Positions 7,207 to 64,000 of a stretch of 64,000 nucleotides of DNA are shown here, one piece after another. The notes under the pieces are model-generated. The model did not search any database and was not told the origin of the DNA. It was given only the letters and a program-made list of their open reading frames with translations. Source of the DNA: an uncultured Gemmatimonadales bacterium (lineage in GTDB: Bacteria > Gemmatimonadota > Gemmatimonadetes > Longimicrobiales > RSA9); NCBI GenBank assembly GCA_963798085.1, contig CAWCRS010000003.1:544001-608000 (forward strand), written 5' to 3'. Position 1 is the first letter of the stretch. The number at the start of each line of letters is the position of its first letter. The translations under genes were made by a program, and so were the position numbers.

Positions 7207-7644
7207 CTCAACCTCCTGTCTGTGTTCTCAGGAACGGGGATCGGGCGGTTCCAAGCCGCTTTCAGCGCATTTCGCGTGCCGTCCCCAGGCCCTGACGCAA
7301 TGCGCGTTCGGACGCGTAGTTGCGCCAGCATTACAACGCATGATTCCATGGTGAAGTGACAACTGCGTGCACTCACCTGCAACGTTGTGGTAACCAGTCG
7401 TCGCAACGTTGCGTTCTGCCGCATCGGTCGCGAGAATGCGAGGCACTGAGCAAGAACGCGCAATCGATACGCCTCGTGGGCCATCTCCTGTCTCAATGCG
7501 AGTGTGTCGTTTGCTGTTCCCGTACCATAAGGCGCCTTGCGCCGCTCCATCCCGACACGCCATTCGTCGCCGGCCACCGAACACAACCGGAGAAGCCGAC
7601 AGGAGTCGTTCGATGGCGTGGGCGCGAAAGGGAGGCAAAGCGAA

Positions 7645-8136
7645 ATGAGCGAGGCCACAACCGGCCGATCGCCGCGGGAGTCTGCCTCGGTCATCAGCGA
7701 GCTGATGATGCCGAACCAGGTGAACAACCTGGGCCATGTCTTCGGTGGCGTGGTGCTTTCCATGGTGGACCGGGCGGCGGCGGTTGCGGCCATGCGACAC
7801 GCCGGCCGCATCGCCGTCACGGCATCCATCGATCGTGTGGATTTCCGGCAGCCGATCTACGCCGGCGAGCTGGTGACGTGCAGTGCGCGCGTGAACTACG
7901 TGGGCCGCACTTCGATGGAGGTGGAGGTGACGGTAATGGCAGAGAATCTCCTGACGCGAACGAGCCGGCTGACCACGACCTGCTACCTGACCTTCGTCGC
8001 CATCGACAAGCACCATGAGCCGACGCCGGTGCCTCCGCTGCTGCTGGAAACGGATGAAGAGCGGCACCGGTGGAAGGAGGCGGAGCTACGGCGTGCCTCG
8101 CGGCTGGAGCTGGGCGTGAAGCTGGGGCGGGCGTGA
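7645..8136 (+). CDS. Acyl-CoA thioesterase (hotdog fold, YciA-like)
   Basis: N..GHVFGG...MVD, VTASIDRVDF, GRTSMEV, TFVAID; ATG 7645 with GGAGG RBS. Confidence 0.92.
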   Translation: MSEATTGRSPRESASVISELMMPNQVNNLGHVFGGVVLSMVDRAAAVAAMRHAGRIAVTASIDRVDFRQPIYAGELVTCSARVNYVGRTSMEVEVTVMAENLLTRTSRLTTTCYLTFVAIDKHHEPTPVPPLLLETDEERHRWKEAELRRASRLELGVKLGRA

Positions 8137-10142: not shown

Positions 10143-11369
10143 ATGGAATACCGTAAAGCCAGACGCTCCGAGGTTCGCGCGGTGGCCGAATTGTGGGTGC
10201 ACTCGTTTCCGGGTGACCGCTCGCTCGCGGAGCGCATGCAGGTGCTGGAAATGGCGGGCCAGCACGGGGGCATCGAAACCGTGCTGGTGGCGGAGGAGGG
10301 AGGCCGGCTGGCGGGTGCGCTCAAGGTCACGCCGTTCACGCAGTATCTGGGTGGCGCGGCGTTGCCGGCGATGGGGCTCGCGGCCGTCGGTATCGCGACC
10401 TGGGCGCGGCGAGAAGGCCTGGGTTCCGCGCTGTGTCGTTATGCGCTCGAGGTTTCGCATGACCGCGGCCAGGTGGTGAGCCTGCTGTTTCCGTTCCGGC
10501 CGGAGTTCTATCGCAGGCTGGGCTGGGGAATGGTGGGCGAGCTGCACGAGTATCGTTTTGCGCCGGAGCAGTTGCCTGCGGTTCTGGACGGCGGCGTGCG
10601 GCTGGCTTCGCCGGCCGACATGCCAGCGGTCTGGGAGTGCTACGACCGCGTGGCGCGTGCCTCTCAAGGCATGATCGCGCGCGACGAATTCCTGTGGAAG
10701 CGCCATATCGATCAGCCCGCGACGCACGTCTTCCTTGCCGAGCAGGATGTGGTGCGGGGCTACATGGTGGTTCGTTATGCGCGCGCACGCAGTGCGGACC
10801 GCCGGCCTCTTGTCGTGAAGGAGGTGGTAGCGGAGAACGACCTGGCGCGCGACCTGCTCTGGTCATGGGTTTCGCGGCAGCGCGATCTCTGGCGCCGCAT
10901 CCGGTACGATGCGCCACCGGACGAGCATTTCGGATTGCGACTCATTGATCCTCGCCCGGTGGGCTATCGGCCCGCCCGCTGGCTCTGGGCGCGCGTGGCG
11001 AGGGTGATTCGCGGGCCGATGCTGCGGATCGTCAATGTCGCCGAGGCATTCACGACTCGCCTGCAATGGGGACCAGCCCCACCCTTCACGTTCCTGCTCG
11101 ATGTGCGGGACGATGTTCTACCTCAGAATCGCCGCTGCTGGCGGGTCTCTTTCAATGGCCAGCGGGTGGGGATGGGAGAAGCAGACGCGGTGGCTGCGGC
11201 CGATGCGCAGCTTGCTGTGGATCCGGCGACGCTGGCCCAGTTGTATGCTGGCGAACTGGATGTCAGCGCCGCGCGGAGCCTGGGCCGGGCGCACGTCCAG
11301 GGCGACATTGCGTCCCTGAACGCCTTCTTCCGGCCTGCATTGGGTTTCCGTCTGCTGGACGAATTCTGA
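10143..11369 (+). CDS. Eis-like GNAT acetyltransferase with C-terminal SCP2-like domain
   Basis: VG...WARREGLGSAL, SLLFPF..EFYRRLGW, MLRIVNV, C-terminal DEF. Start reassigned to ATG 10143. Confidence 0.88.
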   Translation: MEYRKARRSEVRAVAELWVHSFPGDRSLAERMQVLEMAGQHGGIETVLVAEEGGRLAGALKVTPFTQYLGGAALPAMGLAAVGIATWARREGLGSALCRYALEVSHDRGQVVSLLFPFRPEFYRRLGWGMVGELHEYRFAPEQLPAVLDGGVRLASPADMPAVWECYDRVARASQGMIARDEFLWKRHIDQPATHVFLAEQDVVRGYMVVRYARARSADRRPLVVKEVVAENDLARDLLWSWVSRQRDLWRRIRYDAPPDEHFGLRLIDPRPVGYRPARWLWARVARVIRGPMLRIVNVAEAFTTRLQWGPAPPFTFLLDVRDDVLPQNRRCWRVSFNGQRVGMGEADAVAAADAQLAVDPATLAQLYAGELDVSAARSLGRAHVQGDIASLNAFFRPALGFRLLDEF

Positions 11370-11382
11370 CAAGGGGACGCGC

Positions 11383-11991
11383 GTGGCAATCGAAGCTCTC
11401 TTCTGGGATGTTGGCGGCGTCCTGCTGAGCAACGGCTGGGACCGGGTGGCGCGCGAGCGGGCAGCTGCCCGGTTCGGCCTGGACGCAGTCGAGCTGGCTG
11501 ACCGGCACGAGATGATGGTGCATGATCTGGAGACGGGCCAGATCTCGTTCGATGCCTATCTCAAGGCCATCGTCTTCTATCGCGAGCGCTCCTTCACGCA
11601 CGAGGCCTTCTTCGATTTCGTGCGGCACCAGTCGCAGGCGATTCCGGAGGTGCTGGCGCTGGCGAGGGCGGTTGGCGCAACCGGCCGCTGGCTCATGTGC
11701 ACGATCAACAATGAATCACGCGAGCTGAACGAGTATCGCATTCGCCAGTTCGATCTGCGCAGCCTGTTCCCGTTCTTCGTCAGCTCGTGCTACGTGGGTG
11801 TACGGAAGCCGGAAGAGCGCATTTACCGGCTGGCTCTCGAGCTGACGCAGCGCGAGGCGCCGAACTGCGTGATGATCGACGATCGGGCGTTGAACCTCGA
11901 GCATGCGAAACGGCTGGGGCTGCACACAGTACAGTGCGAGAATGCGGAGCAGGTGCGGCGGGCGCTGGAAGAACTGGGCGTCTCAGCCTGA
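11383..11991 (+). CDS. HAD-superfamily phosphatase
   Basis: FWDVGGVL motif I, KPE, MIDDR..N motif IV. Confidence 0.9.
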   Translation: MAIEALFWDVGGVLLSNGWDRVARERAAARFGLDAVELADRHEMMVHDLETGQISFDAYLKAIVFYRERSFTHEAFFDFVRHQSQAIPEVLALARAVGATGRWLMCTINNESRELNEYRIRQFDLRSLFPFFVSSCYVGVRKPEERIYRLALELTQREAPNCVMIDDRALNLEHAKRLGLHTVQCENAEQVRRALEELGVSA

Positions 11992-11993
11992 GG

Positions 11994-12440
11994 TCAGCCT
12001 TCCTTCAACGCTACGTCGAGCGCGTTCCAGCCGAGCAGCGCACATTTCACGCGCACCGGGAAGCGACTCACGCCGCTGAGTGCGCGCAGATCTCCGAGGG
12101 CCTTGTCGTGCGCCGCGTCGGCGTCACCGTGCATCAAAGCCGTGAACCGCTCGATCAGCTGTTTCGCTTCGGCGCGCGTCTTCCCGCGCAGCAGCTGAGT
12201 CATCATGGAAATCGACGCCTGCGAGATGGAGCACCCCTCGCCCACGAAGCGTGCTTCCTGAACGCGGTCGTTCTCGATCCGGAGCTGCAGCCAGACCTCA
12301 TCGCCACACGTGGGGTTGTTCATGTGCACGTGGCTGGTGGCGCCGGGCAGCTCACCCTTGTTGCGCGGGTGTTTGTAGTGCTCGAGGATGAGCTCCTGAT
12401 AGAGCGAACCGAGAGCGGGTGTGCTGCGGTCGATGGTCAT
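11994..12440 (-). CDS. sufU: SUF system NifU/IscU-like sulfur-transfer protein
   Basis: LYQELILEHYKHPRN, NPTCGD, GCSISQAS, FPVRVKCALL; ATG 12440. Confidence 0.93.
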   Translation of the reverse strand: MTIDRSTPALGSLYQELILEHYKHPRNKGELPGATSHVHMNNPTCGDEVWLQLRIENDRVQEARFVGEGCSISQASISMMTQLLRGKTRAEAKQLIERFTALMHGDADAAHDKALGDLRALSGVSRFPVRVKCALLGWNALDVALKEG

Positions 12441-12595
12441 GCGCACAATGTCGCGGCACAGTCGGGCACGGTCAAACCCTGCACCTGGCGGCGGCTTGCG
12501 GCGGGAAGCGCGCCGGAGAATCGATTGAACGGCGTCGCCTGCCGAAACAGTCCACTGCCCAAGAGTACCGGGGTCGCGCACGCGAGTGAGGATCG

Positions 12596-13303
12596 ATGAG
12601 TGAAGGTGAAGGCAACGGCCTGCCGGTGCGCTACAGCGATCTCGAGGTAACGCAGATCCTGCGGCGCGCGGTGGAGCTGCAGGAGAAGGAGGGCGCCGGC
12701 GGCGGCGGCGCCGGTCTGACGCTCGAGCAGTTGCAGGATATTGCGCGCGACGTGGGTGTGGATCCGCGGTTCGTGCAGGATGCGGCCCGCTCGCTGGTAC
12801 GGACGCGGCGCAATGGCAGGCTGCTGGGCGGTCCGACCGAGTTCCATTTCGTGCAGATCCTGCCGCAGGGCTACGATCCGGCCCGCACCCAGGCGATGAT
12901 CGACGAGATCCGGACCGTGATGGGCAGGCACGGCAGGGTGGCGGAGGTAGCTGACGCGCTCGAGTGGCAGGCGAGGGACGCGGGCGGCGGCACGTTCGTG
13001 TCGGTGAGCCGCGTGGGACATGAAACACGCGCGCGCGTGATCGGCATTCGCACGGAGGCGTGCGTTACCGTCTACATGGTGTTTGGCTGTGTGGCGCTGC
13101 TGGGCAGCATTGCCGCGGGCCGGCTGCTCATCGGGTTCGGTGCTGCCGGCTCGTTGCTGGGCGCAGTGTTGGTGACTGGGAGCGCGTGGCTGGGTGCGCG
13201 CGCGCTATGGACCCGCATCGCGCGCCGCTGGGATCGGCGGCTGCGACTGTTGCTGCGATCGGTGGTGGAGGTCCTCAAGCCGGATTCCGCCAGCGACAAC
13301 TGA
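12596..13303 (+). CDS. Hypothetical membrane protein (two C-terminal TM helices)
   Basis: RYSDLEVTQILRRAVELQ, GLTLEQLQDIARDVGVDP; GAGG RBS; fills the sufS-sufU gap on the opposite strand. Confidence 0.7.
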   Translation: MSEGEGNGLPVRYSDLEVTQILRRAVELQEKEGAGGGGAGLTLEQLQDIARDVGVDPRFVQDAARSLVRTRRNGRLLGGPTEFHFVQILPQGYDPARTQAMIDEIRTVMGRHGRVAEVADALEWQARDAGGGTFVSVSRVGHETRARVIGIRTEACVTVYMVFGCVALLGSIAAGRLLIGFGAAGSLLGAVLVTGSAWLGARALWTRIARRWDRRLRLLLRSVVEVLKPDSASDN

Positions 13304-51989: not shown

Positions 51990-52176
51990 CAGGAGGCGGC
52001 TCACGCAGGAATTGCCGCGCCCTCGTTCCGGGTCGGGCCGGCGAACACGGCCGGGCCGGGACTCGTGGATGGGCGGCTCCGGCCGGAAGCAAAGAATGCC
52101 CGGACTGTCCGAGTCCTTCGCCCCAGCACGCTTGCCGGGGGCATGGTGCTTCCATTAACAATGCCAGCAGACTCAA

Positions 52177-52189
52177 CTAGCACTGCTAG
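52177..52189. promoter_or_regulatory. Palindromic operator candidate CTAGCA-C-TGCTAG
   Basis: Perfect inverted repeat with two CTAG, 8 nt before the PadR ATG. Confidence 0.55.
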
Positions 52190-52197
52190 ATCAAGGC

Positions 52198-52530
52198 ATG
52201 AACGAGAAAGAGCTGCTCGGCGAATTCGAGCACCAGGTGCTGCTGTCCGCGCTCCGGCTGGGCGATGTGGCGTTCACGTCCAGCATTGTGCTGGAGCTGG
52301 AGCGTCGCATTGAGCGGCAGGTGGCGGCGGCGGCAGTGTACATCGCGCTGCGCCGGCTGGAGGAGAACGGGCTGGTGCGGTCGGAGCTGCGCGAGGGCGA
52401 CAGTCGCGCGGGGCGGCGCGAGCGCCGGCATTTCGCGGTGACGCGCGAGGGGCTGCACCTGCTGCGCCAGTCGCGCAGCCGTTTCCTGCGCCTGTGGGAT
52501 GGCCTCGAGCTGGTGCTGGCGGAGGAATGA
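52198..52530 (+). CDS. PadR family regulator
   Basis: LGEFEHQVLL, AVYIALRRLEENG, GRRERRHF.VT.EG. Confidence 0.92.
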   Translation: MNEKELLGEFEHQVLLSALRLGDVAFTSSIVLELERRIERQVAAAAVYIALRRLEENGLVRSELREGDSRAGRRERRHFAVTREGLHLLRQSRSRFLRLWDGLELVLAEE

Positions 52531-55340
52531 TGCGCCGCGCGAGCCAGCCGAACGGCCGCAGCGCGCGGCCGCCGCGCGTGCTGCGTGTTCTGGTGCTCCT
52601 CGTCCTGCGCCTCTTCCTGCCCGCTTCGGAGCGTGCGGCCGTGGGGGTGGAGCTGGACGAGCTGCATGACGCCCGCCGGCGCGCGGCGGGACCGGTGCGC
52701 GCGGCGGTCTGGTACGCGCTGCAGCTGCCCAGTTTCGGGCTGCGGCTCTCGCTGGTCCTTGCGCGGCGCGCGTCCCGTCGCGTGCGCGGTGCCGGCTCAG
52801 CGGAATTCAGGCGACGACGTTCGTCCGGCTCTTCGTCGCGGGGCCGGCACGAGGGCTGGCTCCTGCAGCTGCCATCCGGGCTGGCGCAGGCGGGGCGTGC
52901 GCTGCGGCGCAGTCCGGCATACGCGCTGGCCACGGTGCTGACACTGGGGCTGGGTATTGCGGGTGTATCGGCGGTGTACGGTGTGGCAAACTGGGTGTTA
53001 TTGCGCCCTGTCCCCGGCGTGCGTGCGCCGGACCAGCTGCTGACCATCGTGCTGGAGAGCTTCAAGTACGCGAACAGTGCGTTCCCGATCGCGCACACGG
53101 AGCTGCAGGACCTGCGCAGCTTCTCTCCGGTGCTGTCAGGCATGGCTGCCGCCGGCGAGCAGGATGTGCACGTGGCGCCGGTCGCAGCCGGCTCCCCTGT
53201 GCGCCTTCCCGGACAGGTGGTAACAGCGAATTACTTCGACGTGCTGGGCATTGCCATGGCGGCGGGTCGTGGCTTCCTGCCCGGGGATGATGGCGAAGGT
53301 GCGCCCGCCGTCGCTGTGGTCGGTCAGAACCTGGCGCGGCGCTTCTGGGGCGACGTCGTGAGCGCAGTGGGCGCCGAGGTGCGCGTGAATGGCCTGCCGT
53401 ACACGGTGGTGGGCGTGGCGCCGCGCGGCTTTCACGGCGACGAACTGCCGGGCCGCGTGGACATCTGGTTCCCGGCAGGCGCATTGCCCGGCCTGCTCCA
53501 CGAGCCGGGGATCCTGCGCGGCGCCAGCCAGGTCTGGTCGCGGATGATTCTGCGGCCCGGGACGGGCGCACCGGTGGCAGGTATCGCCGCCCAGCTCAAC
53601 CGCGCGCTGAGCGCGAGCCGCGCGCAGCATGCCGGGGCGCCGGGATCCGTCGCCGACAGCCAGGCGCAGTTCCGTGCGCATCGTGGCATTGGTCTGTCGC
53701 CGCTGCTGCGCAGCTCCGTGCAGCGCACGCTGACGATCCTCACGGCCGCGGCCGTGCTGCTGCTGCTGCTGGCCTGCGCCAACGTGGCAAACCTCGGGTT
53801 AGCGCGGGCCGCCGTCCTGCGCGCCTCGGTCACGCTCCGCCTGGCGCTGGGCGCCGGCCACGCGCGACTCGTGCTCGAGCGACTCATGGAGAGCGCACTC
53901 GCCGGCATCGCCGGCAGCGGTCTGGGTGCGCTGCTCGCGCTGCTGGCGGTGACGGTGCTGCGGCACAGCAATCTCGGTCTGCTGGGCGTGCCGCTGGACG
54001 GCGTCGCGCTGGACCTGCGCGTCCTGGCGTTCACGATCGCGGCCGGTCTGATGGCCGGTGTACTCGCCGGCGTTCTGCCTTCGCTGGCGGTGCGTCACGA
54101 TCACGCCAGTAGAGTGCTGCGCTCTGCACGTCATGGCGACCGTCGCGGAGCCCGCGTGCGCTCCGCGCTGGTCATGGCGCAGGTTGCGCTGTCGGCAATT
54201 CTGCTCGTGGGCGCCGGTCTGCTGGCGACCACGCTGTGGCAGTTGCGACGGGTGGAAATTGGTGTGCCCGTCGACGGCGTTGTGACGTTCGCGTTCGATC
54301 CGGAACTGCAGGGTTATGACGCCGCGCGAACGGTGGACCTCGTCGCGAAGCTGCTGGACGCCGTGCGCGCGGATCCCGCGGTGTCGTCTGCCGGCATTTC
54401 CGGTTTTCCGCCTTTCGGCTCGCTGTACATTCCGCTCGGGCTCAAGCGACCGGAAGGCGACTGGCGCAAGAACCGCGTCGTCGCCCGGTCCTTCAGTGTT
54501 TCGCCCGGCTTCATGGATGCGCTCGGCGTCCGCCTCGTGGCGGGCAGGCCCATTCCAGAGGATCTCTGGCTGCAGCGGGACAGCACCGCACCGCGTGTGG
54601 CGATCCTCAATGAAACGGCTGCCCGCGCGCTGTTCCCGGAGCTGCAGCCGGTCGAAGTGGTGGGAAAGAGCGTCGACATGCGCGGCCCCGGCTATCCGCC
54701 GCTGCAGGTGATCGGTGTGGTGCGTGATGCCCGCCTCGCCAATGTCTCGGAGCCGCCGATACCGTACTGCTTCCAGCCATGGTCGCAGGGGTTCGTGAGC
54801 GGCACCGTGACGGTATACGCGCGCACGCGTGGAGATCCTCGTCCCTTCCTGCGCGCAGTGCGCGAGATCATGGCGAGAGTCGACGGCACGCTGCCGGTGT
54901 ACGAACTGCGCACCCTGCGCGAGCTGATCGACGATCAGCTTGCCGAGCCGCGCTTCGTATCATTGCTGGCAGTCGTGCTGGCCGCACTCGGCCTCGTGCT
55001 TGCCGCCGTGGGCCTGTACGGCCTGCTGGCGCACAGTGTCGCGGAGCGCACACGCGAGATCGGCATCCGCAGCGCACTGGGCGCCGTGCCTTCGCGCATC
55101 GTGAGACAGGTCGTGCGTGGCGGGCTCGGCACTACGCTTGCCGGTGCGGCGGCAGGCCTGCTCGGCGCTGCATTTCTCGGGCGCTACCTCGAGTCGCGAC
55201 TCTTCGGCGTCGAACCGCTCGACCCCTCGATCTACCTCGCCGGCATTGTGCTGCTGCTCGGTGTCGCGCTGCTCGCCAGCTGGCTGCCTGCCCGACGGGC
55301 CATGCGTGTAGACCCGATGGTAGCGCTCCGCTCGGAGTGA
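52527..55340 (+). CDS. ADOP-type duplicated permease
   Basis: ATGA overlap with PadR; LLACANVANL, ERTREIGIRSALGA, VDPMVALRSE. Confidence 0.92.
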   Translation: MMRRASQPNGRSARPPRVLRVLVLLVLRLFLPASERAAVGVELDELHDARRRAAGPVRAAVWYALQLPSFGLRLSLVLARRASRRVRGAGSAEFRRRRSSGSSSRGRHEGWLLQLPSGLAQAGRALRRSPAYALATVLTLGLGIAGVSAVYGVANWVLLRPVPGVRAPDQLLTIVLESFKYANSAFPIAHTELQDLRSFSPVLSGMAAAGEQDVHVAPVAAGSPVRLPGQVVTANYFDVLGIAMAAGRGFLPGDDGEGAPAVAVVGQNLARRFWGDVVSAVGAEVRVNGLPYTVVGVAPRGFHGDELPGRVDIWFPAGALPGLLHEPGILRGASQVWSRMILRPGTGAPVAGIAAQLNRALSASRAQHAGAPGSVADSQAQFRAHRGIGLSPLLRSSVQRTLTILTAAAVLLLLLACANVANLGLARAAVLRASVTLRLALGAGHARLVLERLMESALAGIAGSGLGALLALLAVTVLRHSNLGLLGVPLDGVALDLRVLAFTIAAGLMAGVLAGVLPSLAVRHDHASRVLRSARHGDRRGARVRSALVMAQVALSAILLVGAGLLATTLWQLRRVEIGVPVDGVVTFAFDPELQGYDAARTVDLVAKLLDAVRADPAVSSAGISGFPPFGSLYIPLGLKRPEGDWRKNRVVARSFSVSPGFMDALGVRLVAGRPIPEDLWLQRDSTAPRVAILNETAARALFPELQPVEVVGKSVDMRGPGYPPLQVIGVVRDARLANVSEPPIPYCFQPWSQGFVSGTVTVYARTRGDPRPFLRAVREIMARVDGTLPVYELRTLRELIDDQLAEPRFVSLLAVVLAALGLVLAAVGLYGLLAHSVAERTREIGIRSALGAVPSRIVRQVVRGGLGTTLAGAAAGLLGAAFLGRYLESRLFGVEPLDPSIYLAGIVLLLGVALLASWLPARRAMRVDPMVALRSE

Positions 55341-55408
55341 GCAGCCGCAGGCGACAATGGACTCTGCGTGATTCGACAGAACATTGCGCGCGGCGGAGCG
55401 CAGCTACC

Positions 55409-55978
55409 CTACCACACGCCGGGAATCAGCGCGGCGACTTCCGTCTCGTACGCTGCGTACTCGGGTCCGAACGTGGCGCGCATGAGCTGCTCCTCCTGCC
55501 GGAGCTTCAGCACGAAACCGACCACTAACAGCAGGAAGCCCAGTGGCGCGGCGCGCGTGTCCTGGATGAGCGTACTGGCAAGGAGTGCGAGCAACAGGCC
55601 CGTGTAGATGGGGTGACGTGTCAGGCGATAGGGGCCTGTGCGGATCAGCGCGTGGTTTTCCTTCAGCGTGACCGCGGCGCTCCACTGGCGTCCGATGTGG
55701 ATGCGCGCCCACCAGGTCCAGCCGAGGCCGACAAGGACGACGGCCAGTGCCATCCAGTCAGTTACAGGACTGGCCGGGTAGAGCGGGCGGAGCAGGATGC
55801 CGAAGGCGGTGGAATGAGCGAAGAGGAGGATCCCGCCGGCCCAGATGAAAACACTGTGTTTGAGCCTGGCCATGCCTGACTGACGCGATCGCGTGGGATT
55901 GGTCCACGCGGCCGCGGCGAGCCAGCTGAGCAGCCAGATCACCCACAGCGCGCCCAGCGTGGTTTCGATTCCTTTCAT
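55409..55978 (-). CDS. Isoprenylcysteine carboxyl methyltransferase (ICMT/PEMT) family membrane protein
   Basis: H.LIRTGPYRLTRHPIYTG, EE..M...FG.EY..Y...LIP; own ATG at 55978. Confidence 0.88.
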   Translation of the reverse strand: MKGIETTLGALWVIWLLSWLAAAAWTNPTRSRQSGMARLKHSVFIWAGGILLFAHSTAFGILLRPLYPASPVTDWMALAVVLVGLGWTWWARIHIGRQWSAAVTLKENHALIRTGPYRLTRHPIYTGLLLALLASTLIQDTRAAPLGFLLLVVGFVLKLRQEEQLMRATFGPEYAAYETEVAALIPGVW

Positions 55979-56070
55979 TCCGCCATCCCCCGCGTCCGCG
56001 CGTCGAACGATCAATCCGGTAGCATCTGCTTCTCGCCTTGCGGACTGGCGTTCTCCGCCGACGGGCAACG

Positions 56071-56491
56071 CTAACGCCCGGCTTGCTTCGCCGCCTCCAG
56101 CCGCAGGAACCCCTGAATGAAGAAGAGACCGAAGAAGATGTTGCTGGGGGTCGCCGCCAGCAGACTGATGGTACCGGCGGTGGTCATGCTGGAGGCGTGC
56201 AGCACGTACGTCACGTCGGCGAAGATTTCGCCCAGGCGCATGCCGCCGACGATCACCAGCCAGTACGGCCGGTGGCGCCAGCGTATCAGCGCAATGGAGA
56301 TGGAACAGTGAGAACGCGGCCCATGTCGCGCCGGTCCGGGCGAGCAGTCCCTGCGGGTCGTCGAGCGGCGCGTTGTGGAAGAAGTGGAACCAGAATGCGG
56401 GGAAGAAAAGGGCCCAGCAGGCGAGGATCGCGTCCCACACCGTGAAGAACAGCAGGAACGCGGTCGTGAGGAAGCGGCGGATCAGGGACAT
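56071..56491 (-). CDS. Hypothetical four-TM membrane protein (1-nt frameshift at ~56296)
   Basis: MSLIRRFLTT...AAFSLFHL joins IALIRWRHRPYWLVIVGGMRLGEIFAD...QAGR*; span is 140 codons + 1 nt. Confidence 0.7.
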
Positions 56492-56518
56492 GTCGATGCC
56501 TTTCTGGTCGCCAGAGGG

Positions 56519-57697
56519 TCAGGGCTGCGTGGCGTCGGGTGGTGTGGCAGGCGCTGCGCGCGTTTCCTGATAGCGGAGCAGCTCCGCTTCCAGCTCCGGC
56601 CCGATAACACCATTGTCATCAAAGAACGGCTGGTACGTCGCCGCCGGCAGCGCACTGCGTGTCTTCTGACTGAGTGCGTAGCCCAGCTGCCGTGCCGCGG
56701 TGAACGTGGTGCCGGGAAAGTCGCGGGCTGCCTGGCCGGCTCGTGTGGCCACCCAGTTGCCGGGATTCGCGCCCATGGCGCCTGCGAGCAGGGCGAGGAG
56801 GCGCGCGTCGCGTGAGGCGGGATCGGTCTGCTCGAAGGTCACGGCGCCCACGCTCACCGCGTGCGTTTCCGACCAGGCGTGCGTGTTCTTCTCGAGCGGC
56901 GTCGTGCGCTCGTCGATGTAGGGGATCCAGCGCAGATCGAACGCAATGTCGCCGGCGAGGCAGCGTTCACGCCAGTCATCAGTCAGATAGTGCGCGCCCG
57001 GTCGCAGCGCGCGGTGGTGGTTTACATTGGTTGCGGGCACGAACGTGAACTTGCCATGCGTGTCGCCGGCCTCGACCACGCCGGTCCAGTACTGCTGCAC
57101 TGCGCTGCTGGAAAGGACTGTGCGGCCCGTCTGCCGCGCGATGTGCAGGTACAGCTCCGTTGCGCGCAACAAACCGAGGCGCTGGCGAAGTGCGTGGAAC
57201 AGCTTCGCCTGTGATGCGGTCAGGTTGCCGACATCGAGCTGACCCACAGTGCCGAACGGGATATCGGCGCCGGCCGCGGCCGCGGTTGCGGCGAGCAGCG
57301 CGACGAATTCAGCGGCCGTATCCGTGGGTGCGCCCGGATCATTGATGGCGAGGAAGTCAACACGCTCGCGGTTGCGTGTCTGGAATGCGACCATGAGCCC
57401 GAGAAAATCCGGGTCCGTCTCCAGGTGCGGGCAACCGAGCCCTGTCGAGATGCGGCCGATGCCCGTGGCGCGCGCGCCCGGCTGGAACAGACCCAGGCCA
57501 TCCAGCGCAGGAGGCAGCGCGGCCGCGGCCGCGAATGAAACGCGACCGGCAGCGAGCTGCTGCTGGTGTGCGCCGCGATCCGTGCCGCCTAACCGTGCGT
57601 TCTCACGCAGCACGCGCTGGATCCCGGGCATTTCCGATACGATCGCGGCCAGCGCCTGCCGTTCGTCGTCGGTTCCATTGAAGCGCCAGCCGGCCAT
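56519..57697 (-). CDS. Catalase-fold (mini-catalase/allene oxide synthase-related) heme protein
   Basis: RGAH (distal His), LFQPG, GRISTG, PDFLG, VDFLAIN (Asn), NPGNW, ARQLGY (RxxxY proximal Tyr), in the order seen in catalase-related peroxidases. Confidence 0.7.
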   Translation of the reverse strand: MAGWRFNGTDDERQALAAIVSEMPGIQRVLRENARLGGTDRGAHQQQLAAGRVSFAAAAALPPALDGLGLFQPGARATGIGRISTGLGCPHLETDPDFLGLMVAFQTRNRERVDFLAINDPGAPTDTAAEFVALLAATAAAAGADIPFGTVGQLDVGNLTASQAKLFHALRQRLGLLRATELYLHIARQTGRTVLSSSAVQQYWTGVVEAGDTHGKFTFVPATNVNHHRALRPGAHYLTDDWRERCLAGDIAFDLRWIPYIDERTTPLEKNTHAWSETHAVSVGAVTFEQTDPASRDARLLALLAGAMGANPGNWVATRAGQAARDFPGTTFTAARQLGYALSQKTRSALPAATYQPFFDDNGVIGPELEAELLRYQETRAAPATPPDATQP

Positions 57698-57707
57698 GTC
57701 GTCCGCC

Positions 57708-59324
57708 TCAGAGGGTCTTCAGGTATTCGATCAGCGCGTTCTTCTGGTCACTGCCCAGCGTCGTACCGTACCTGTGGCCGTGATTGCTGTTGCCGCGGAG
57801 GCTGGTGTCGTAGCGCCAGCCTTCGTCCGACGGCATGCAGCCCCACACGGAAGTGCCGGCGACGGGTGCGGCGGGCAGACTGGCATTGTCGCCTGCACAA
57901 CGCGCCGCGATGAAGCCCATGTTGAAGCGGTCCAGCACATCATAGCCGCGGTAGAACGAAGCCGGTCGCCTGTCCTCGGGATCGAGCAGTGCGCGCACGG
58001 TGGGCACGGAGCCGTTGTGCAGATAGGGCCCGCGCAGCCAGAGCCCATCAAGCTGGAGCGCGATGTAGCCGGGCCTGTCGGGTTTGCCCATGGGTGTGCG
58101 GTCGATTCCGGCCAGGTGGCGCACCGCGCGGTTGGCGCTGTCTGCGGCTTCGCGTGTCCAGGCATTGGCGCGCTCCGCGTCGGTACCGATCTCCTCGAGC
58201 GGGATCACCGTTCCTAACCGGTTGTTGCGGCCGCTGGCGTGGCATTCCGCGCACGCCGTCTCGAACACCGCCTGGCCTCGCCTGGCCAGCGTGGAGTCGA
58301 TGGGCAGCGGGTACCGTGGCGGCGGCAGCTTCATGAGCCAGTCCTCGATGTCTTTCATGCGCTGGCGGAAGAAGGCGGAATTCTTCGCCTGCAGGCCCAG
58401 CGCAGAGTCGATGATCACCGACCGATAGGAGGTGGTGGCGCCGTCCAGGTTCATGAGCATCAGGTGCGTCGCATCGGTGCCGGCCTTCGACCAGTCCGCG
58501 GTCAGCGCGAAGTCCGTGGGCGGCCATACACGACCCTGCTGCACACGCGTTTCCAGGTGCCAGATGGATGGGAAATCCGTGTTATCTATGCTGCTGTCCA
58601 TTGGCAGCTGGAGGAAATTGAACTTGGTGAGGTTCATGGGCGCGTCCCGGCCCGGTCCCCAGGCCGGCCGCTGCGCCGCCCACTTGAAGCCCTCGCCCTG
58701 CTCCGCGAGTCGCTTCTTCGCCAGCGGTATGTAGAGGAACTTGTACAGCAGCCGATCGACGAAGCCGAGCGGGTACGCCATGTCGATCTGGGTGATGATC
58801 GTCTCGGCGCCGAAGCGGGAATCGGCCGCGGCCCGGCTGAAGAAGTTGAGCAGACCCTGCACATCCGCGGTGTTGCTGCCGCCGGCGGCGACAATGACAG
58901 GCGTCGAGTCCGGGTGCACGCGGTACTGTGTCGCGTGACAGAGCGCACAATTGAAGCCCACGCGATCGAACCCGACTGTCTTTTTCGAGAAGCCGACGGG
59001 CAGCTCCGTACCCGGTTGCCAGGGAATGCCCAGCGATGCGTAGCCGCCGGGACCGGGCAGCAGGTCATCGAAGATGCGTGGCAGCACGACCACGATCCAG
59101 TAGGGAATGCCCGCCTGTGCTTCGGCGCCGATCGAGCCGTGCAGGAAATTCGCTTCCTGATTGTCCGTGATCCACTTCGGCTGGGGCAGCTCGCGGAAGA
59201 ATTTGTACCAGCCGAATATGCCGCTGGGAACGGCGATGATGACAAGTATGACCAGGATCCGCACGAGCCACGTCTTCCAGCCGGCTTTCTTTTTCGCTGC
59301 TGCTGTCCCCGTGCTGTCGCTCAC
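57708..59324 (-). CDS. Membrane-anchored di-heme cytochrome c, RoxA/MauG-motif family (paralog 2)
   Basis: N-terminal TM helix; CALCH, CAECH; LDGLWLRGPYLHNGSVP; GNSNHGH.YG; LIEYLKTL. Confidence 0.85.
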   Translation of the reverse strand: MSDSTGTAAAKKKAGWKTWLVRILVILVIIAVPSGIFGWYKFFRELPQPKWITDNQEANFLHGSIGAEAQAGIPYWIVVVLPRIFDDLLPGPGGYASLGIPWQPGTELPVGFSKKTVGFDRVGFNCALCHATQYRVHPDSTPVIVAAGGSNTADVQGLLNFFSRAAADSRFGAETIITQIDMAYPLGFVDRLLYKFLYIPLAKKRLAEQGEGFKWAAQRPAWGPGRDAPMNLTKFNFLQLPMDSSIDNTDFPSIWHLETRVQQGRVWPPTDFALTADWSKAGTDATHLMLMNLDGATTSYRSVIIDSALGLQAKNSAFFRQRMKDIEDWLMKLPPPRYPLPIDSTLARRGQAVFETACAECHASGRNNRLGTVIPLEEIGTDAERANAWTREAADSANRAVRHLAGIDRTPMGKPDRPGYIALQLDGLWLRGPYLHNGSVPTVRALLDPEDRRPASFYRGYDVLDRFNMGFIAARCAGDNASLPAAPVAGTSVWGCMPSDEGWRYDTSLRGNSNHGHRYGTTLGSDQKNALIEYLKTL

Positions 59325-59344
59325 GTTTTGCCAGCCTCTCCGGC

Positions 59345-60979
59345 TCAGAATGTCTTGAGGTACTCGATGAGCGCTGCCTTCTGCGCGGCCGTCAGTGTGG
59401 TGCCGTACTCGTGTCCGCCATTGCCGTTGCCGCGCACCTTCGTGTCGTAGCGCCAGCCGTGCTTCTCCGCATCCGGTCCGCTGGTCACGAAGCCCACGCG
59501 ATCGTAGTCGTAGACGTCGTACCCGATCCAGAACAGCTGCGGCCGGTTACGCGCCGGCTCCAGCAGCGACTGCAGATCGGGCACCGAGCCGTTGTGCAGG
59601 TAGGGCGCGCGCAGCCACAGGCCGTCCAGAGGCATGTTGGCGTAGCCGTTGGTCTTCCGAAAGTGCGTGAAGCGGGCGGGATAACAGTTCTTTACATTGT
59701 CGGGATGTTCGCGGCAGTGCTCCTCGTCCGCCGGGAACCCGTCATAGAGCGAGTTCTGCGCTTCGGCCAGCACTTCGGTGTAGGAGTCGAGGCGGGAGCG
59801 GTCGGTGCCGATGTACTCGAGCGGGGTGACCGTGCCCACGCGGCTGCCATCGCCTTCCGTGCGGAACGGCGGTTTGCCGTTGCCGTGGCAGGACCAGCAG
59901 TACTGCCGGTAGATGGGCTCGCCCTGCGCCGCCAGTTCCGGGCGGAGATGCTCGGGCGGGAATGCGGGCGGCTTCGCCTGGTCCCACAGATACGCCGCGA
60001 TGCGCAGCACACCCGCCTTGTCGATGGTGGTGGGCGTCGCACCCGTGCCGAAGCCGGCGCTGAGGTTGCGCTCGTTGACGGATGTGTTGTTGCCGTCCCA
60101 GTGCAGCTGCATGCCCTCCTTGTACTTCTGATTCCACACCGCCGGGAAGTCCGCATTGCCCACCTTTTCCCGCTCCGGCGCCTTCTCCATGGGAAAGCCG
60201 AGCAGCGCCTTGGGCGGGTCGAACGTGTCCACGCGTCCCGGCCCCCAGCTCAGCGTGTTCACGAACGACATGCGTGACGTGAGCGTGAGCAGCTGCTCGC
60301 GCAGCAGTGTAATGCCGAGATAGCGGAACACGAAGCGGTCGACAGGATTCAGCGGATCGGGCCGGTACACGCCGGCTGGCAGATGCGCGGCGGTTCGCCG
60401 CGTCTCCAGCTCGTCGACCTTGGGCATGATGCGGGTCGAGCGGAACTTCCAGTCGGCCGCGGCGCGGTCCAGGAACTCGGCGAGCGCACCGAGGTCGAAG
60501 GTATTCGCCGGCATCCCGAGGATGATCTGTCGCTTGCCATCCGTTGACGGCCGTACCGATCCCGTGTGACAGACGGAGCACGTGAAGTACACGCGGTCGA
60601 TGCCCTGCACGCGGCGCATGGACATGCCCACGGGCAGATCGAACACCGGGTCCTTGCCATCCTCGTAGATCATGCCGAACGAGAGAAAGCCGCGGCCGGC
60701 CTGATGATCGGGCAGGTACTCCGGAAACATTTCGGGCAGCGCGATCCAGATCCAGTAGGGAAAACCGAAGCCGAATTGCGTGCCGAAACCGCGCTCGCCG
60801 CCGGTCGAGCCGTACTTGAAGTGCTCCTGGACGTCTTCGTACGTGACCGGCTTGTCATTGGTGAGCCGCACGGTCAGGTAGATGGCAAGGCCGATGAACG
60901 CGAGTACGCAGACGACGCCGATCCAGAATGTGATGTTCGCGAGTTTCTTCCGCGTCCGCTCCAGGAACGAGTCCGCCAT
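59345..60979 (-). CDS. Membrane-anchored di-heme cytochrome c, RoxA/MauG-motif family (paralog 1)
   Basis: N-terminal TM helix; CSVCH, CWSCH; LDGLWLRAPYLHNGSVP; GNGNGGHEYG; LIEYLKTF. Confidence 0.85.
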   Translation of the reverse strand: MADSFLERTRKKLANITFWIGVVCVLAFIGLAIYLTVRLTNDKPVTYEDVQEHFKYGSTGGERGFGTQFGFGFPYWIWIALPEMFPEYLPDHQAGRGFLSFGMIYEDGKDPVFDLPVGMSMRRVQGIDRVYFTCSVCHTGSVRPSTDGKRQIILGMPANTFDLGALAEFLDRAAADWKFRSTRIMPKVDELETRRTAAHLPAGVYRPDPLNPVDRFVFRYLGITLLREQLLTLTSRMSFVNTLSWGPGRVDTFDPPKALLGFPMEKAPEREKVGNADFPAVWNQKYKEGMQLHWDGNNTSVNERNLSAGFGTGATPTTIDKAGVLRIAAYLWDQAKPPAFPPEHLRPELAAQGEPIYRQYCWSCHGNGKPPFRTEGDGSRVGTVTPLEYIGTDRSRLDSYTEVLAEAQNSLYDGFPADEEHCREHPDNVKNCYPARFTHFRKTNGYANMPLDGLWLRAPYLHNGSVPDLQSLLEPARNRPQLFWIGYDVYDYDRVGFVTSGPDAEKHGWRYDTKVRGNGNGGHEYGTTLTAAQKAALIEYLKTF

Positions 60980-61006
60980 GTCAGCCTCTCGCCGGTGGCG
61001 TGTGTG

Positions 61007-61474
61007 TCATGCGGCGGCCGCGGTCGGGAACTCGAGCATGAACAGCGCAATGCGGCGTTTGCCCCAGAACACCTGGCCCAGGTACACACCGGGCGAGACC
61101 ATGCGGATCTCATTGCGGATGAAGCGCGCCACCACAGAGGTCTTCGAATAGTCGAGAATGATCGCCGGGCCGGTGCAGAACCAGCTCTGGTCTTCGTAGA
61201 CGCGGGCGCGGATCAGCGGAAAGCCCAGGATGCTGATGCGATTCTTCAGGTCGCCGCTCTCGGGCCGGAAGATCTTGCCCTTCCACATGAACACGCGGAT
61301 CAGTCCGTGGATGACCCGGTCCAGGAGCGAGCCCGGCAGCACCATTGCGGTGCCGCGTGCGGGACCCGCCGGAATCGGGCCCGGCTGACTCTCGCGGAAG
61401 ATGCGGTCCAGCTCGTTGCGCGGCGCAACCGCCATTTCCCGCGCACTCACCTGTGATGCGATGTTAGTGCTCAT
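61007..61474 (-). CDS. Hypothetical protein, beta-rich
   Basis: ATG overlaps the P450 stop (ATGA), GGAGG RBS; WKGKIF, ILDYS, IRNEIR.VSPGVYLG motifs. Confidence 0.8.
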   Translation of the reverse strand: MSTNIASQVSAREMAVAPRNELDRIFRESQPGPIPAGPARGTAMVLPGSLLDRVIHGLIRVFMWKGKIFRPESGDLKNRISILGFPLIRARVYEDQSWFCTGPAIILDYSKTSVVARFIRNEIRMVSPGVYLGQVFWGKRRIALFMLEFPTAAAA

Positions 61475-62751
61475 GATATCCCCTCCGTGACTGTGAAGCG
61501 CGCTTCCTTCGCCGGGAAGGACACGGGCAGCGGATCGCGTGCGAGTCGCTGACTGCGCGCGGCCACCCGCAGCTCCACGATGAGTCGCACGAGCGCCGCT
61601 CGACACACGAACAGGATCAGGTCACGGCCCGGGCAGGCGCGCGGGCCGCGCAGGAACAGGTTGGATGCGGCGGCCGCCGCATCGGGCTGCGTCTCGAGCC
61701 AGCGCTCGGGGCGGAAATGGTGCACGGTCGGGCCGAGCGCGTCGTCGCGCTGGAGCAGCGGGAACCAGTGCACGTACTCGGTCTCGCCCTTCGACGTCTG
61801 TGCATGGTGGAAGGTGCGCGTGACCGGCGGGAACAGTCGACCGGTCTCGAGGATGCACGCGTTCAGGTACGGCAGGCGCTCGATGGACGCGGCGCGATCC
61901 GCCGGCCCCGCGCCCGCAATCTCCTCGCGCACGCGCCGTCGCACTTCCGCGCGCGACGTCACGAGCGCCAGCGTGCGCGCCAGCAGGTCCGTGCCCGATC
62001 CGGTGAACGTGAACATCCAGTGCGGAATCTGTTCGAGCAGTGCGTCGAGGCTGGTGCCGGGCGCCAGGGCGCGGGCGTGTGCAATCAGTGCAGGCGACGA
62101 TGCAGCTTCCGCCTCCCAGCACGCTTCCAGTGTGTCGTAGAGCCGGCGCCGCCGCTCGCGGTAGCGGAACCCGAGCAGCTTGCGGCGCATTGGCGACTGC
62201 ACGGCATCGAACAGGACGCGTACGTCCTCGGCCGGATCCACGCCCGCGGGTACGCTGCGGCCCAGCACGATAGGCACCATGGCGCGGCCCATGGCGGCGC
62301 GCAGGCCGTGCACATTCGTCACCGGCAGGGCGAACGCGGCACGCACGGCGTCCAGGTAGTGCTGCGCGGCCGGGTGAGCCTCGCCGGTGTGCAGGACGTG
62401 CTCGTTGAAGGGCCGCAGCTCGTGCCACGCCTCGCCATTGGCAATGGTGAGTGCGTGCGGCGCCAGGAAGCTCATCGCGCCGGTCTTGAGGCGCCCGGCC
62501 GTTGCACCCGCGGGCGAGGGTGGTGTGGAGAGGAGCGCGTCGGAACGCCCGCGATCGGCGACGATCTCGAACTCCGTGTTACCCAGCCTGAAGCCGGGAT
62601 CGCCGCCACGGTCCCGGCGCACCACATTGCGCAGCCAGTGACACAGTATCTCTCCGGTGTCGCGGGGCCGGCGCAGCAGGCCCGAGCCCAGGCGCGCGCC
62701 CAGGCGGACGACGTCGCCAGCTCCGATCCGTGCGCCACCGCCCTTCGCCAT
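61471..62751 (-). CDS. Cytochrome P450 with non-canonical I-helix
   Basis: ETGR (ExxR), FRPERW, FLRGPRACPG heme-Cys motif; I-helix region HWMFTFTGSGTD; ATG 62751. Confidence 0.9.
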   Translation of the reverse strand: MAKGGGARIGAGDVVRLGARLGSGLLRRPRDTGEILCHWLRNVVRRDRGGDPGFRLGNTEFEIVADRGRSDALLSTPPSPAGATAGRLKTGAMSFLAPHALTIANGEAWHELRPFNEHVLHTGEAHPAAQHYLDAVRAAFALPVTNVHGLRAAMGRAMVPIVLGRSVPAGVDPAEDVRVLFDAVQSPMRRKLLGFRYRERRRRLYDTLEACWEAEAASSPALIAHARALAPGTSLDALLEQIPHWMFTFTGSGTDLLARTLALVTSRAEVRRRVREEIAGAGPADRAASIERLPYLNACILETGRLFPPVTRTFHHAQTSKGETEYVHWFPLLQRDDALGPTVHHFRPERWLETQPDAAAAASNLFLRGPRACPGRDLILFVCRAALVRLIVELRVAARSQRLARDPLPVSFPAKEARFTVTEGIS

Positions 62752-62752
62752 G

Positions 62753-64000
62753 TCAGCGGCCCTTGAAGGACGGATCCTGCTGTGCTTCCGCGCGAGCGCG
62801 CCAGCCAATGCCGTAGTAGCTGCCACGATCGCGCCCCCATGGATCGAAGGCGTTGATCACGCCTTTCAGCTCGGGCGCCAGCTCGGGCATGGTGCGCAGC
62901 AGGATGCGCTTCATGGGCGACACGACTTCCTCGTGTCCGTTGGGTTTGCCTGCCTCGTTCTCGACGTCCGGTCCGTTGTTGTTGACCCAGTCGACGCCCA
63001 GCTGCGAGTAGAACTCGGGCCGGAAGCTGGATGTGAAGAAGCGATCGCTGAAGAGGCGCCGCGACGCGTTGATGATGAAAACCGTGAACTGCGTCTCGGA
63101 GATGGCGAAGCCGTGCGGCCGCGTGGACTCGGCCAGCCAGCCCACCACGGTATCCAGGTCCTCGATGTTGTCCACCACGGTGCCATCGGGATGACCCAGG
63201 CAGTCGGTGACGAACTTGCCGTTCAGCTTCTGCGCGCCGGTGATCTGCTTCGAGTCGTCGCATCTGTGCGTGCCGTAGATCGCGCGCAGCTTCTGCACGT
63301 ACGCCTGTTCCCGCTGCTTCTCCGCCGATGTGTCGGGCAGGCTGACGTTGATGAAGTCATCGAAGCTGCTCAGGCTCTGCAGCCCGTACTGGCGGCGGAA
63401 CTCGTTGAAGCGGGGAATGCCGCGCTCGCGGTCGCGCAGGATGTCGAGTGCGGCCACATCCAGTTGATTCGTTCTGCTGTGCAGCCGCGGCATGGGCAGG
63501 TTCTGCAGGAACATGGGGTGATTGTCCAGCGTCAGCAGGCCCAGCCGCTGCCGGCCCATGGTAACAGCCCAGTTCGCGAGCCCGCCATCGTGCATGGCAT
63601 TGGTTGCCAGGCCGCGGAATGTGTTCACCACAGGCACCGGCTTCTCGACCTCGTTCGGTCTTCTGGTATTCGCGGAACTCGAGCAGGTCGGGCACCAGCG
63701 GGTGCAGGCGGTATACGGTGACGAACTCCTCCGGGAAATTGAAGGGCGAGCCGAAGTGGTTCACACCGCGATTCAGGTCCTTCGGCTGTCCGGCATTCCA
63801 GCGGCGTTCTGGCTGCCCAGGCCGAAGATGCCGGCGCCCGATGCGAACACGGAGTACCACAGGGTCTCGTCGCGTTCGTTGAAGGACTGTCCGAAGTGCT
63901 GCACGGCGGCCTTCTCGAGTGCGCGTGACACGCTGTTATCGCCGCGCACCAGGCCGTGCCAGTTCGCGTTCATGGCGCTGGTAGAGCGGCTCGTCGTAGA
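62753..64000 (-). CDS. Fatty-acid alpha-dioxygenase (PIOX)-like heme peroxidase, 5'-truncated, frameshifts at ~63660, ~63800 and ~63980
   Basis: EEFVTVYRLHPLVPD (catalytic Tyr, proximal His), DVAALDILRDRERGIPRFNEFRR and GFAISETQF..FIINASRRLFSDRFFT match alpha-DOX signature segments of the peroxidase-cyclooxygenase superfamily. Confidence 0.85.

Follow-up and report, generated by a model that had tools for sequence, protein, structure and literature searches.

A cluster of eight genes for haem and membrane proteins

We analyzed a 64,000-nucleotide stretch of DNA from an uncultured Gemmatimonadales bacterium (GenBank assembly GCA_963798085.1, contig CAWCRS010000003.1; G000:C3:544001-608000), termed here the window, which carries at 55409-64000 a run of eight minus-strand genes headed by an alpha-dioxygenase-like haem enzyme (DOX). 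All coordinates are counted in window positions, including those that lie beyond the window end. A previous reading of this DNA, made from its letters alone (the sequence-only reading), had described the run as a co-oriented eight-gene operon for a bacterial oxylipin or lipid-hydroperoxide pathway, with successive gaps from DOX on of 1, -4, 27, 20, 10, 27 and 92 nt; both orientation and gaps were recovered in the open reading frame listing. The run comprises five haem proteins from four folds. The same reading had proposed to retrieve the upstream contig in order to complete the operon, and when this was done DOX proved to be the first gene, reaching to ~65609. It had also seen no gene for a ferredoxin or reductase, and the contig read beyond the window end likewise holds neither upstream of DOX. 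The features are as follows.

62753..64000, minus strand: 3' part of DOX, the alpha-dioxygenase-like haem enzyme (PF03098); the gene extends past the window end to ~65609
61471..62751, minus strand: divergent cytochrome P450, 426 aa (PF00067)
61007..61474, minus strand: hyp155, barrel protein of 155 aa (no Pfam or NCBIfam match; barrel from the predicted model)
59345..60979, minus strand: cytA, RoxA-like di-haem protein, 544 aa, membrane-anchored (PF21419, NF040606)
57708..59324, minus strand: cytB, RoxA-like di-haem paralogue, 538 aa, membrane-anchored (PF21419, NF040606)
56519..57697, minus strand: cat, catalase-fold protein, 392 aa (predicted model and Foldseek)
56071..56491, minus strand: small membrane protein, ~140 aa when read through (no known family)
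55409..55978, minus strand: ICMT/PEMT-type membrane methyltransferase, 189 aa (PF04140, PF04191)
55385..55402, minus strand: terminator-like hairpin directly after the ICMT stop codon

Five of the genes form a conserved core

A scan of a genome collection with cytA yielded 13 real loci; a further candidate from Gorillibacterium (32% over 59 residues) had no tblastn match and was dropped as spurious. By tblastn, DOX, the P450, the barrel, cytA and cytB occur together in two Gemmatimonadales loci (L009 and the rearranged L017), in a Longimicrobiales locus (L012) and in the gammaproteobacterium Thioalkalicoccus limnaeus (L010), whereas a 4.3-kb contig (L011) carries the P450, the barrel, cytA and cytB and ends before the expected position of DOX. 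In L009, L010 and L012 the P450 gene separates DOX from the barrel gene; it adjoins DOX in L017 and precedes the barrel gene in L011. When 301 genomes of the phylum were surveyed, DOX orthologues were present in four (G000, the source of the window, G237, G302 and G313) and cytA orthologues in three (G000, G237 and G313), with DOX adjacent in each of the three. The expectation that homologues of these genes would co-occur was thereby confirmed, the di-haem pair being adjacent in three of the four phylum-sample genomes that hold a DOX orthologue. The conserved unit is however a core of five genes (DOX, P450, barrel, cytA and cytB) and not the eight initially proposed, the catalase-fold gene being an accessory. 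The close relatives of the source organism lack the cluster: of 41 genomes, four gave any cytA match at all and only G000 itself had an orthologue. The cluster is therefore patchily distributed and not typical of its lineage.

Loci with a different composition were informative as to the role of the P450. A metagenome contig (L032) holds DOX, a catalase-related protein, the barrel and cat beside cytA-cytB, and in the slot between DOX and the barrel it carries, instead of the P450, a 377-aa lipoprotein whose sequence matches include 3e4w (E 3.7e-9), a catalase-related protein, and 1u5u (E 1.1e-7), the allene oxide synthase of a coral. A relative of this lipoprotein follows a distant DOX in another locus (L041). 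Two classes of hydroperoxide-converting enzymes are known to work independently of a reductase, namely P450s and catalase-related proteins, and their exchange at one position fits such a role. The neighbours in L041 also include an HbpS-like haem-degrading protein (7236-7727, plus strand) and a flavin monooxygenase-like gene (11251-12720, plus strand).

Several loci place the cluster among genes of lipid metabolism. In L039, which has DOX, the barrel, cytA, cytB and cat and lacks the P450, the order on one strand is acyl-ACP-type desaturase (FA_desaturase_2, 319 bits), thioesterase (4HBT_2, 105 bits), DOX, barrel, cytA, cytB, Tle1-like phospholipase (250 bits) and catalase-fold protein. Lipase-type genes are also found near the cluster or the di-haem pair in L014 (Tle1-like phospholipase), L009 (LCAT-like protein) and L017 (patatin), and in L042 a patatin gene directly precedes a distant DOX.

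Two further gene arrangements were observed. The Thioalkalicoccus limnaeus strain Um2 of L010 is a cultured purple sulfur bacterium with the full core, and an autotransporter gene lies directly downstream. In four Acidobacteriota loci (L013-L016), downstream of cytA-cytB come conserved proteins of ~810 aa and ~770 aa with c-type haem motifs and a ~284-aa protein with a distant hyp155-like match; the arrangement resembles an extended version with four cytochromes and neither DOX nor P450.

DOX resembles alpha-dioxygenases and its gene is probably intact

The C-terminal piece of DOX inside the window matched An_peroxidase (PF03098) with 80.5 bits (cut-off 25), and an intact orthologue (L012:5284-8166) did so with 234.8 bits. 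The closest solved relatives are the rice and Arabidopsis alpha-dioxygenases (4kvj, E 1.3e-56; 4hhr, E 9.7e-55), while in this PDB sequence search myeloperoxidase reached only E ~4e-5 and no cyclooxygenase chain was among the matches at E<=0.001. The segments FWIQFMTHDW, AKIHTIEWT and EEFVTVYRLH, which we take to hold the distal His, the proximal His and the catalytic Tyr, are present in the DOX of the window and in seven of seven homologues and align to rice alpha-DOX. The first enzyme is thus alpha-DOX-like, as had been proposed, which both its PDB relatives and its retained motifs FM(T)HDW and VYR(L)H support. With the plant and cyanobacterial alpha-dioxygenases (4kvj, 4kvk, 4hhr), its best solved relatives, it has FM.HDW, AK.HT..WT and VYR.H in common; those enzymes are however 620-650 aa long, whereas DOX has ~950 aa when read through and differs from them by a membrane anchor or lipobox at the N-terminus, an N-terminal extension of 180 aa, a large insert and a cluster of haem partners. 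The G000 enzyme itself begins with a membrane anchor, and the orthologues, with open frames of 934-1204 aa and 10-14 Cys, have either an N-terminal membrane helix or a lipobox. DOX is predicted from these features to face outward, into the periplasm.

As assembled, the gene is not a single open frame. A frameshift-aware alignment to the intact orthologue gave 662 identical residues out of 960 and 18 frame changes, 14 of them read as inserted bases; all are confined to 65308-63665, and the last third of the gene (63665-62753) is free of them. Taken at face value, a gene interrupted over its first two thirds by ~18 frame changes and by in-frame stops would be a true pseudogene, and the cluster a decaying one in this organism. 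We compared the assembly with contigs built from soil-metagenome short reads (run X1, whose coverage is patchy at a depth of 2-6; runs X2 and X3 cover nearly none of the stretch). The X1 contigs omit one base at nine places, and seven of these omissions (63660; 63801 and 63805; 64620; 64664 and 64671; 64829) correspond in both position and sign to five of the 18 predicted frame changes, the other 13 sites being outside X1 coverage. At all five frame-change sites showing any difference, it is thus exactly the extra bases that are omitted. The two remaining omissions, at 55987 and 56296, fall in or near the membrane-protein gene, which has one frame change at ~56296. Outside the cluster, the essential gene rpoB is split over several frames in the same assembly (G000:C5:436158-440305, the NCBIfam model being matched in pieces). 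Given these omissions in the X1 contigs and the split rpoB, we conclude that the frame breaks in DOX are insertion errors of the assembly and not decay; indel errors are genome-wide in this assembly, and its gene calls are to be read accordingly. The pseudogene explanation is highly improbable: besides the X1 omissions, the predominance of inserted bases and the split rpoB, other genomes carry the orthologue as an uninterrupted open frame, and identity to the orthologue still stands at 69% without an excess of substitutions.

The di-haem pair is of the RoxA-like oxygenase type

Both cytA and cytB matched NF040606 (178.4 and 161.5 bits, cut-off 150) and the RoxA-like_Cyt-c domain PF21419 (54.6 and 52.5 bits), and the only solved relative found for them at the sequence level is the rubber oxygenase RoxA (4b2n; E 6.6e-12 for cytA and 3.6e-11 for cytB). 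A protein-atlas search with cytA returned RoxA-like clusters only, without names, and searches of 14 control genomes with NF040606 and PF21419, Pseudomonas aeruginosa not being among them, gave nothing useful. Each protein has two CXXCH motifs, PYLHNGSVP, a C-terminal His within GN.N.GH and an N-terminal membrane helix; in cytA these are CSVCH (His138), CWSCH (His365), PYLHNGSVP and GNGNGGH. PY(L/F)HNGSVP and the C-terminal axial His are retained in 22 of 22 A and B proteins. The paralogues differ in two positions: Trp294 and Phe310 of cytA align to W302 and F317 of RoxA, in a part of the alignment that scores only 5.1 bits, and are kept in 11 of 11 A sequences, whereas the Trp column of cytB holds Leu in eight, Thr in one and Trp in two of 11 sequences and its Phe column Leu in all 11. 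The partial matches of the pair to the RoxA, RoxB and RoxC equivalog models (NF050033, NF050034, NF051462) reached 58-88 bits, as compared to cut-offs of 900-1000. The pair has the PF21419 domain in common with RoxA, RoxB and RoxC; those rubber oxygenases are secreted and degrade rubber, whereas cytA and cytB are shorter, membrane-anchored and set in a lipid-gene context.

In a tree of 11 pairs, A and B paralogues formed two clades with 100/100 support, and the cytA copy of Thioalkalicoccus nested among copies from Gemmatimonadota. The clade split and this nesting argue that the di-haem pair is old, and the tree suggests that the cluster moves between phyla, the placement of the Thioalkalicoccus limnaeus copy pointing to one such transfer.

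A published parallel to the pair is offered by Pseudomonas aeruginosa PA2077 and PA2078, a 10S-dioxygenase and a 7,10-diol synthase assigned to the 'FadCcp' subfamily (PMC4496055). We likened the two pairs by the features given in Table 1 of that paper. According to PMC4496055, PA2077 and PA2078 are periplasmic, tandem RoxA-like di-haem paralogues; cytA and cytB are likewise tandem paralogues predicted to lie outside the cytoplasm, and the two pairs share two CXXCH motifs, PY(L/F)HNGSVP and a third, C-terminal His, and the spacing of the haem motifs is 227 and 232 aa here as against 245 and 235 aa there. PA2077 keeps the inter-haem Trp (W251) whereas PA2078 has Ser (S243; PMC4496055, Table 1), so that in both organisms the product of the first gene retains this Trp and that of the second does not. 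The pairs differ in that cytA and cytB have an N-terminal membrane helix that looks uncleaved and ~540 aa instead of ~630, in that cytB lacks the Phe which PA2078 keeps, and in the alpha-DOX-like, P450 and barrel partners present here, which the Pseudomonas operon as described in that paper lacks. The two proteins had initially been annotated merely as di-haem cytochromes c and regarded as exported enzymes that oxidize further or remove peroxide; they are better described as RoxA-like and oxygenase-type, like the proteins that make up the Pseudomonas oleate-diol synthase, than as generic cytochromes or enzymes for peroxide removal.

The P450, the catalase-fold protein and the barrel

The P450 matched PF00067 over its C-terminal half only (41.8 bits, cut-off 22.8). 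The motifs F-x-x-G-x-R-x-C-x-G (FLRGPRxCPG), E302-x-x-R305 and PERW (P348-E-R) are invariant in seven of seven homologues, as is the stretch HWMFTF.xSG(T/A)DLL, in which by eye there is no acid at the expected place of the I helix, a region that the Pfam model leaves unaligned. Its top PDB match is CYP24A1 at only E 3.7e-7, and neither CYP74, CYP5A/8A nor the P450s that partner fungal dioxygenases were among the PDB matches at E<=0.01. An exported P450 was considered and rejected, the N-termini having neither a signal nor a membrane helix. In the fungal fusions of a dioxygenase and a P450 (linoleate diol synthases and dioxygenase-allene oxide synthases), the P450 needs no reductase (reviewed in PMC13049297). 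As in those fusions, a dioxygenase of the peroxidase-cyclooxygenase type is here paired with a P450; unlike in them, the genes are separate, the PDB search showed no specific similarity of the window P450 to fungal CYPs, and the predicted locations differ, DOX being on the outer side of the membrane and the P450 on the inner.

The 392-aa product of cat has no match in Pfam (Catalase included), NCBIfam or, by sequence, the PDB. Its predicted model (predicted local distance difference test, pLDDT, 83.7; predicted template modelling score, pTM, 0.86) nevertheless retrieved 184 PDB chains at E<=0.001 in Foldseek, the best rows listed being catalase-fold entries and the first of them 3e4y, a 33-kDa catalase-related protein (E 1.5e-11, probability 1.00), with many catalases ranking after it. 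The sequence-only assignment to the catalase fold is therefore upheld by model and structure search. R41-x-x-H44 and R336-x-x-x-Y340, which resemble catalase motifs and may hold the distal His and the proximal Tyr of a haem site, are invariant in 27 of 27 sequences of the family. The fold is common to coral allene oxide synthase (1u5u, 3dy5) and the 33-kDa protein of M. avium subsp. paratuberculosis (3e4w, 3e4y), from which the family is set apart by having neither a Pfam model nor a sequence-level PDB match; moreover, the partner is a lipoxygenase in the coral system and DOX here. Alignment of cat to the catalase-related lipoprotein of L032 gave an hhalign probability of only 50% (E 1.7e-4). 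The gene was found in two of the 301 phylum genomes (G000 and G313), inside the cluster both times, as well as in L032 and L039, and it is a recurrent, linked accessory module of the cluster.

The third core gene, hyp155, had been noted only as a small hypothetical; small it is, but it belongs to the conserved core and encodes a widely fused barrel domain. Its relatives fall into 790 representative clusters at E<=1e-3. The model (pLDDT 85.2) is a small barrel whose only clear fold match is 4mve, a protein of unknown function (Z 13.1), while lipocalin and fatty-acid-binding protein barrels scored Z 5.4-8 (Foldseek E 0.009-0.1), a Z range that is common by chance. From the model, hyp155 is predicted to be an eight-strand barrel of the lipid-binding type. 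In L010 and L017 hyp155 and cytA form one in-frame fusion, and a survey of 24 proteins scanned among the 150 best of the 790 representative clusters revealed fusions to a P450 (P0257), to RoxA-like di-haem proteins (P0260, P0270), to An_peroxidase (P0368, P0372), to a caleosin (P0356) and to an SRPBCC lipid-binding domain (P0269).

A proposed oxylipin pathway and the explanations competing with it

We propose, with a probability of about 0.6, that the core oxidizes free unsaturated fatty acids to hydroperoxides and converts these further, and hence constitutes a bacterial oxylipin pathway, the catalytic steps being predicted from sequence. A lipase or thioesterase would release the free fatty acid, and the outward-facing, membrane-anchored DOX, in which the catalytic Tyr and His are kept, would insert O2 to yield a hydroperoxide. 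With its RoxA-type Trp and Phe, cytA may act as a second oxygenase, and cytB, having lost both, as a hydroperoxide isomerase like the Pseudomonas diol synthase. Rearrangement of hydroperoxides without a redox partner would fall to the P450, the catalase-fold protein or both, and the barrel, tethered to the membrane, could hold the lipid or hand it on.

Several observations weigh against this proposal. DOX, cytA and cytB are predicted to be periplasmic, whereas no export signal is present in the P450, the barrel or the 392-aa protein; being predicted on opposite sides, the two groups would require the substrate to cross the membrane between steps. The suggestion of the sequence-only reading that the P450 and the catalase-fold enzyme convert the DOX product thus gains support from the exchange in L032 and the pairing in L041, but a direct hand-over from DOX to the P450 is not straightforward. 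The 2-hydroperoxide formed by alpha-DOX-type enzymes decays unaided to an aldehyde, making a converting enzyme unnecessary. The P450 is absent from two DOX-linked loci (L032 and L039), the cytA-cytB pair occurs without DOX or P450 in eight of the 13 genome loci (Acidobacteriota and Gammaproteobacteria), and one phylum genome (G302, locus L040) has a DOX orthologue without any partner. Finally, lipid binding by the barrel is read from its fold class (Z 5.4-8) and its fusion partners, and the low-scoring RoxA alignment behind the Trp and Phe columns bears on the roles given to cytA and cytB.

The resemblance of the pair to a rubber oxygenase raises the question of whether the substrate is an acyl lipid at all. 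The cluster might instead oxidize or cleave another hydrophobic compound, such as a polyisoprenoid, a carotenoid, a hopanoid or a quinone side chain, with the RoxA-like pair serving as C=C-cleaving dioxygenases and DOX and the P450 tailoring the fragments. RoxA is indeed the only solved structure matched by cytA and cytB in sequence, partial matches extend to the RoxA, RoxB and RoxC models, cytA aligns its Trp and Phe with W302 and F317, and a polyprenyl synthetase and a DXP synthase are encoded near the pair in L015 and L010. We nonetheless consider such a substrate unlikely: the Rox scores remain far from the equivalog cut-offs, the proteins are membrane-anchored and of ~540 aa as compared to the 662-aa chain of RoxA, and the partner is alpha-DOX-like, that is of a fatty-acid enzyme family, with desaturase, thioesterase and phospholipase neighbours that indicate acyl lipids. 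It is quite improbable, on the other hand, that the genes form a defence set which removes H2O2 or membrane lipid hydroperoxides and makes no products, although the name of NF040606 ('di-heme-cytochrome C peroxidase'), the joint presence of An_peroxidase and a catalase fold and the closeness of cat to the 3e4y catalase-related protein, which reacts with organic hydroperoxides, could be read that way. DOX keeps the alpha-dioxygenase Tyr-x-x-His and is much nearer to alpha-DOX than to true peroxidases, no gene for an electron-donor cytochrome is conserved beside the di-haem pair, the gene string of L039 includes a desaturase and a thioesterase, and the cluster is rare (three to four of the 301 phylum genomes), unlike housekeeping genes for defence.

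A related issue is how far the oxylipin pathway extends along the run. The sequence-only reading had the methyltransferase modify the product, and all eight genes could accordingly belong to one dedicated pathway that ends in product methylation by the ICMT-type enzyme: they lie on one strand with gaps of only 10, 27 and 92 nt after cytB, the sole terminator-like site of the minus strand comes just after the ICMT stop, and ICMT-family enzymes methylate lipid-linked carboxylates. The terminator-like sites in the region are however at chance level (six found as against 5.6 expected), only the position of the hairpin being suggestive, and the small membrane protein and the methyltransferase were detected by tblastn in none of 25 other loci, seven other DOX-linked ones included, so that the methylation step has no comparative support. 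The ICMT-type protein scored 47.1 bits with PF04140 (cut-off 24) and 42.2 bits with PF04191 (cut-off 25), and reached only 83.8 bits with the ICMT equivalog NF040696 (cut-off 160); it is thus a family member to which the family models assign no substrate. A single eight-gene pathway is rather unlikely, and the last two genes are probably co-transcribed local additions or mere neighbours.

Novelty and significance of the cluster

Every enzyme family in the cluster is known, and so is the logic of a dioxygenase with a hydroperoxide-converting haem partner, from fungi, corals, plants and Pseudomonas. New are their combination in a single bacterial cluster, an orphan barrel domain that four families of haem enzymes share, and an orphan family with the catalase fold. 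The sequence-only reading knew of no characterized pathway with this combination, and our literature search, outside of which most subscription journals lie, likewise found no description of it. Few bacterial oxylipin systems are known, namely the Pseudomonas oleate-diol synthase, some lipoxygenases and cyanobacterial dioxygenases. The cluster brings together the hydroperoxide-making and hydroperoxide-rearranging enzyme types of plants, fungi, corals and Pseudomonas, and its carriers are soil and soda-lake bacteria of several phyla. If correct, our proposal would add a new bacterial pathway for lipid signals or lipid modification, a bacterial counterpart to the dioxygenase-P450 pairs of fungi and the lipoxygenase-catalase pairs of corals, novel haem biocatalysts, and a function both for the orphan barrel domain with its 790 clusters and for an orphan catalase-fold family of more than 600 members. 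The cultured carrier Thioalkalicoccus limnaeus renders the prediction testable.

A broader and much more tentative view, which we put forward as a speculation with the balance of probability against it, is that the 150-aa barrel, as yet an unnamed domain, serves to hand over lipids and has been recruited by at least four unrelated families of haem oxygenases (alpha-DOX-type peroxidases, P450s, RoxA-like proteins and caleosins) and that it marks a large hidden set of bacterial oxylipin pathways. The present cluster might then be a membrane-spanning assembly line in which an unsaturated fatty acid, self-made or released by a lipase, is turned into a new class of oxylipins by three haem chemistries acting on one hydroperoxide.

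Surroundings of the cluster

Upstream of DOX, a spacer of ~375 nt is followed by a gene for a metallo-beta-lactamase-fold protein and then by one for a 947-aa membrane protein. The sole sigma-70-like site of the region (TTGACA, 17 nt, AATGAT; 10/12 match) is located at 65734-65762 on the minus strand and precedes the DOX start by ~125-150 nt; sites of this kind occur as often as expected by chance. A patatin-like phospholipase gene (122.8 bits) was found at ~74937-75449 on the plus strand (G000:C3:618937-619449), ~9 kb upstream of the DOX start; its link to the cluster is weak because the genome holds six patatin genes. On either side of the cluster, and inverted relative to each other, lie genes for two large membrane proteins (947-948 aa), at 52494-55340 (plus strand) and ~67187-70030 (minus strand); the proteins look paralogous and their C-termini are alike. 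The GC content is ~0.63-0.67 within the cluster as compared to 0.71-0.72 at 52000-54500. Together with the inverted flanking genes, this difference could mean that the cluster is an inserted block.

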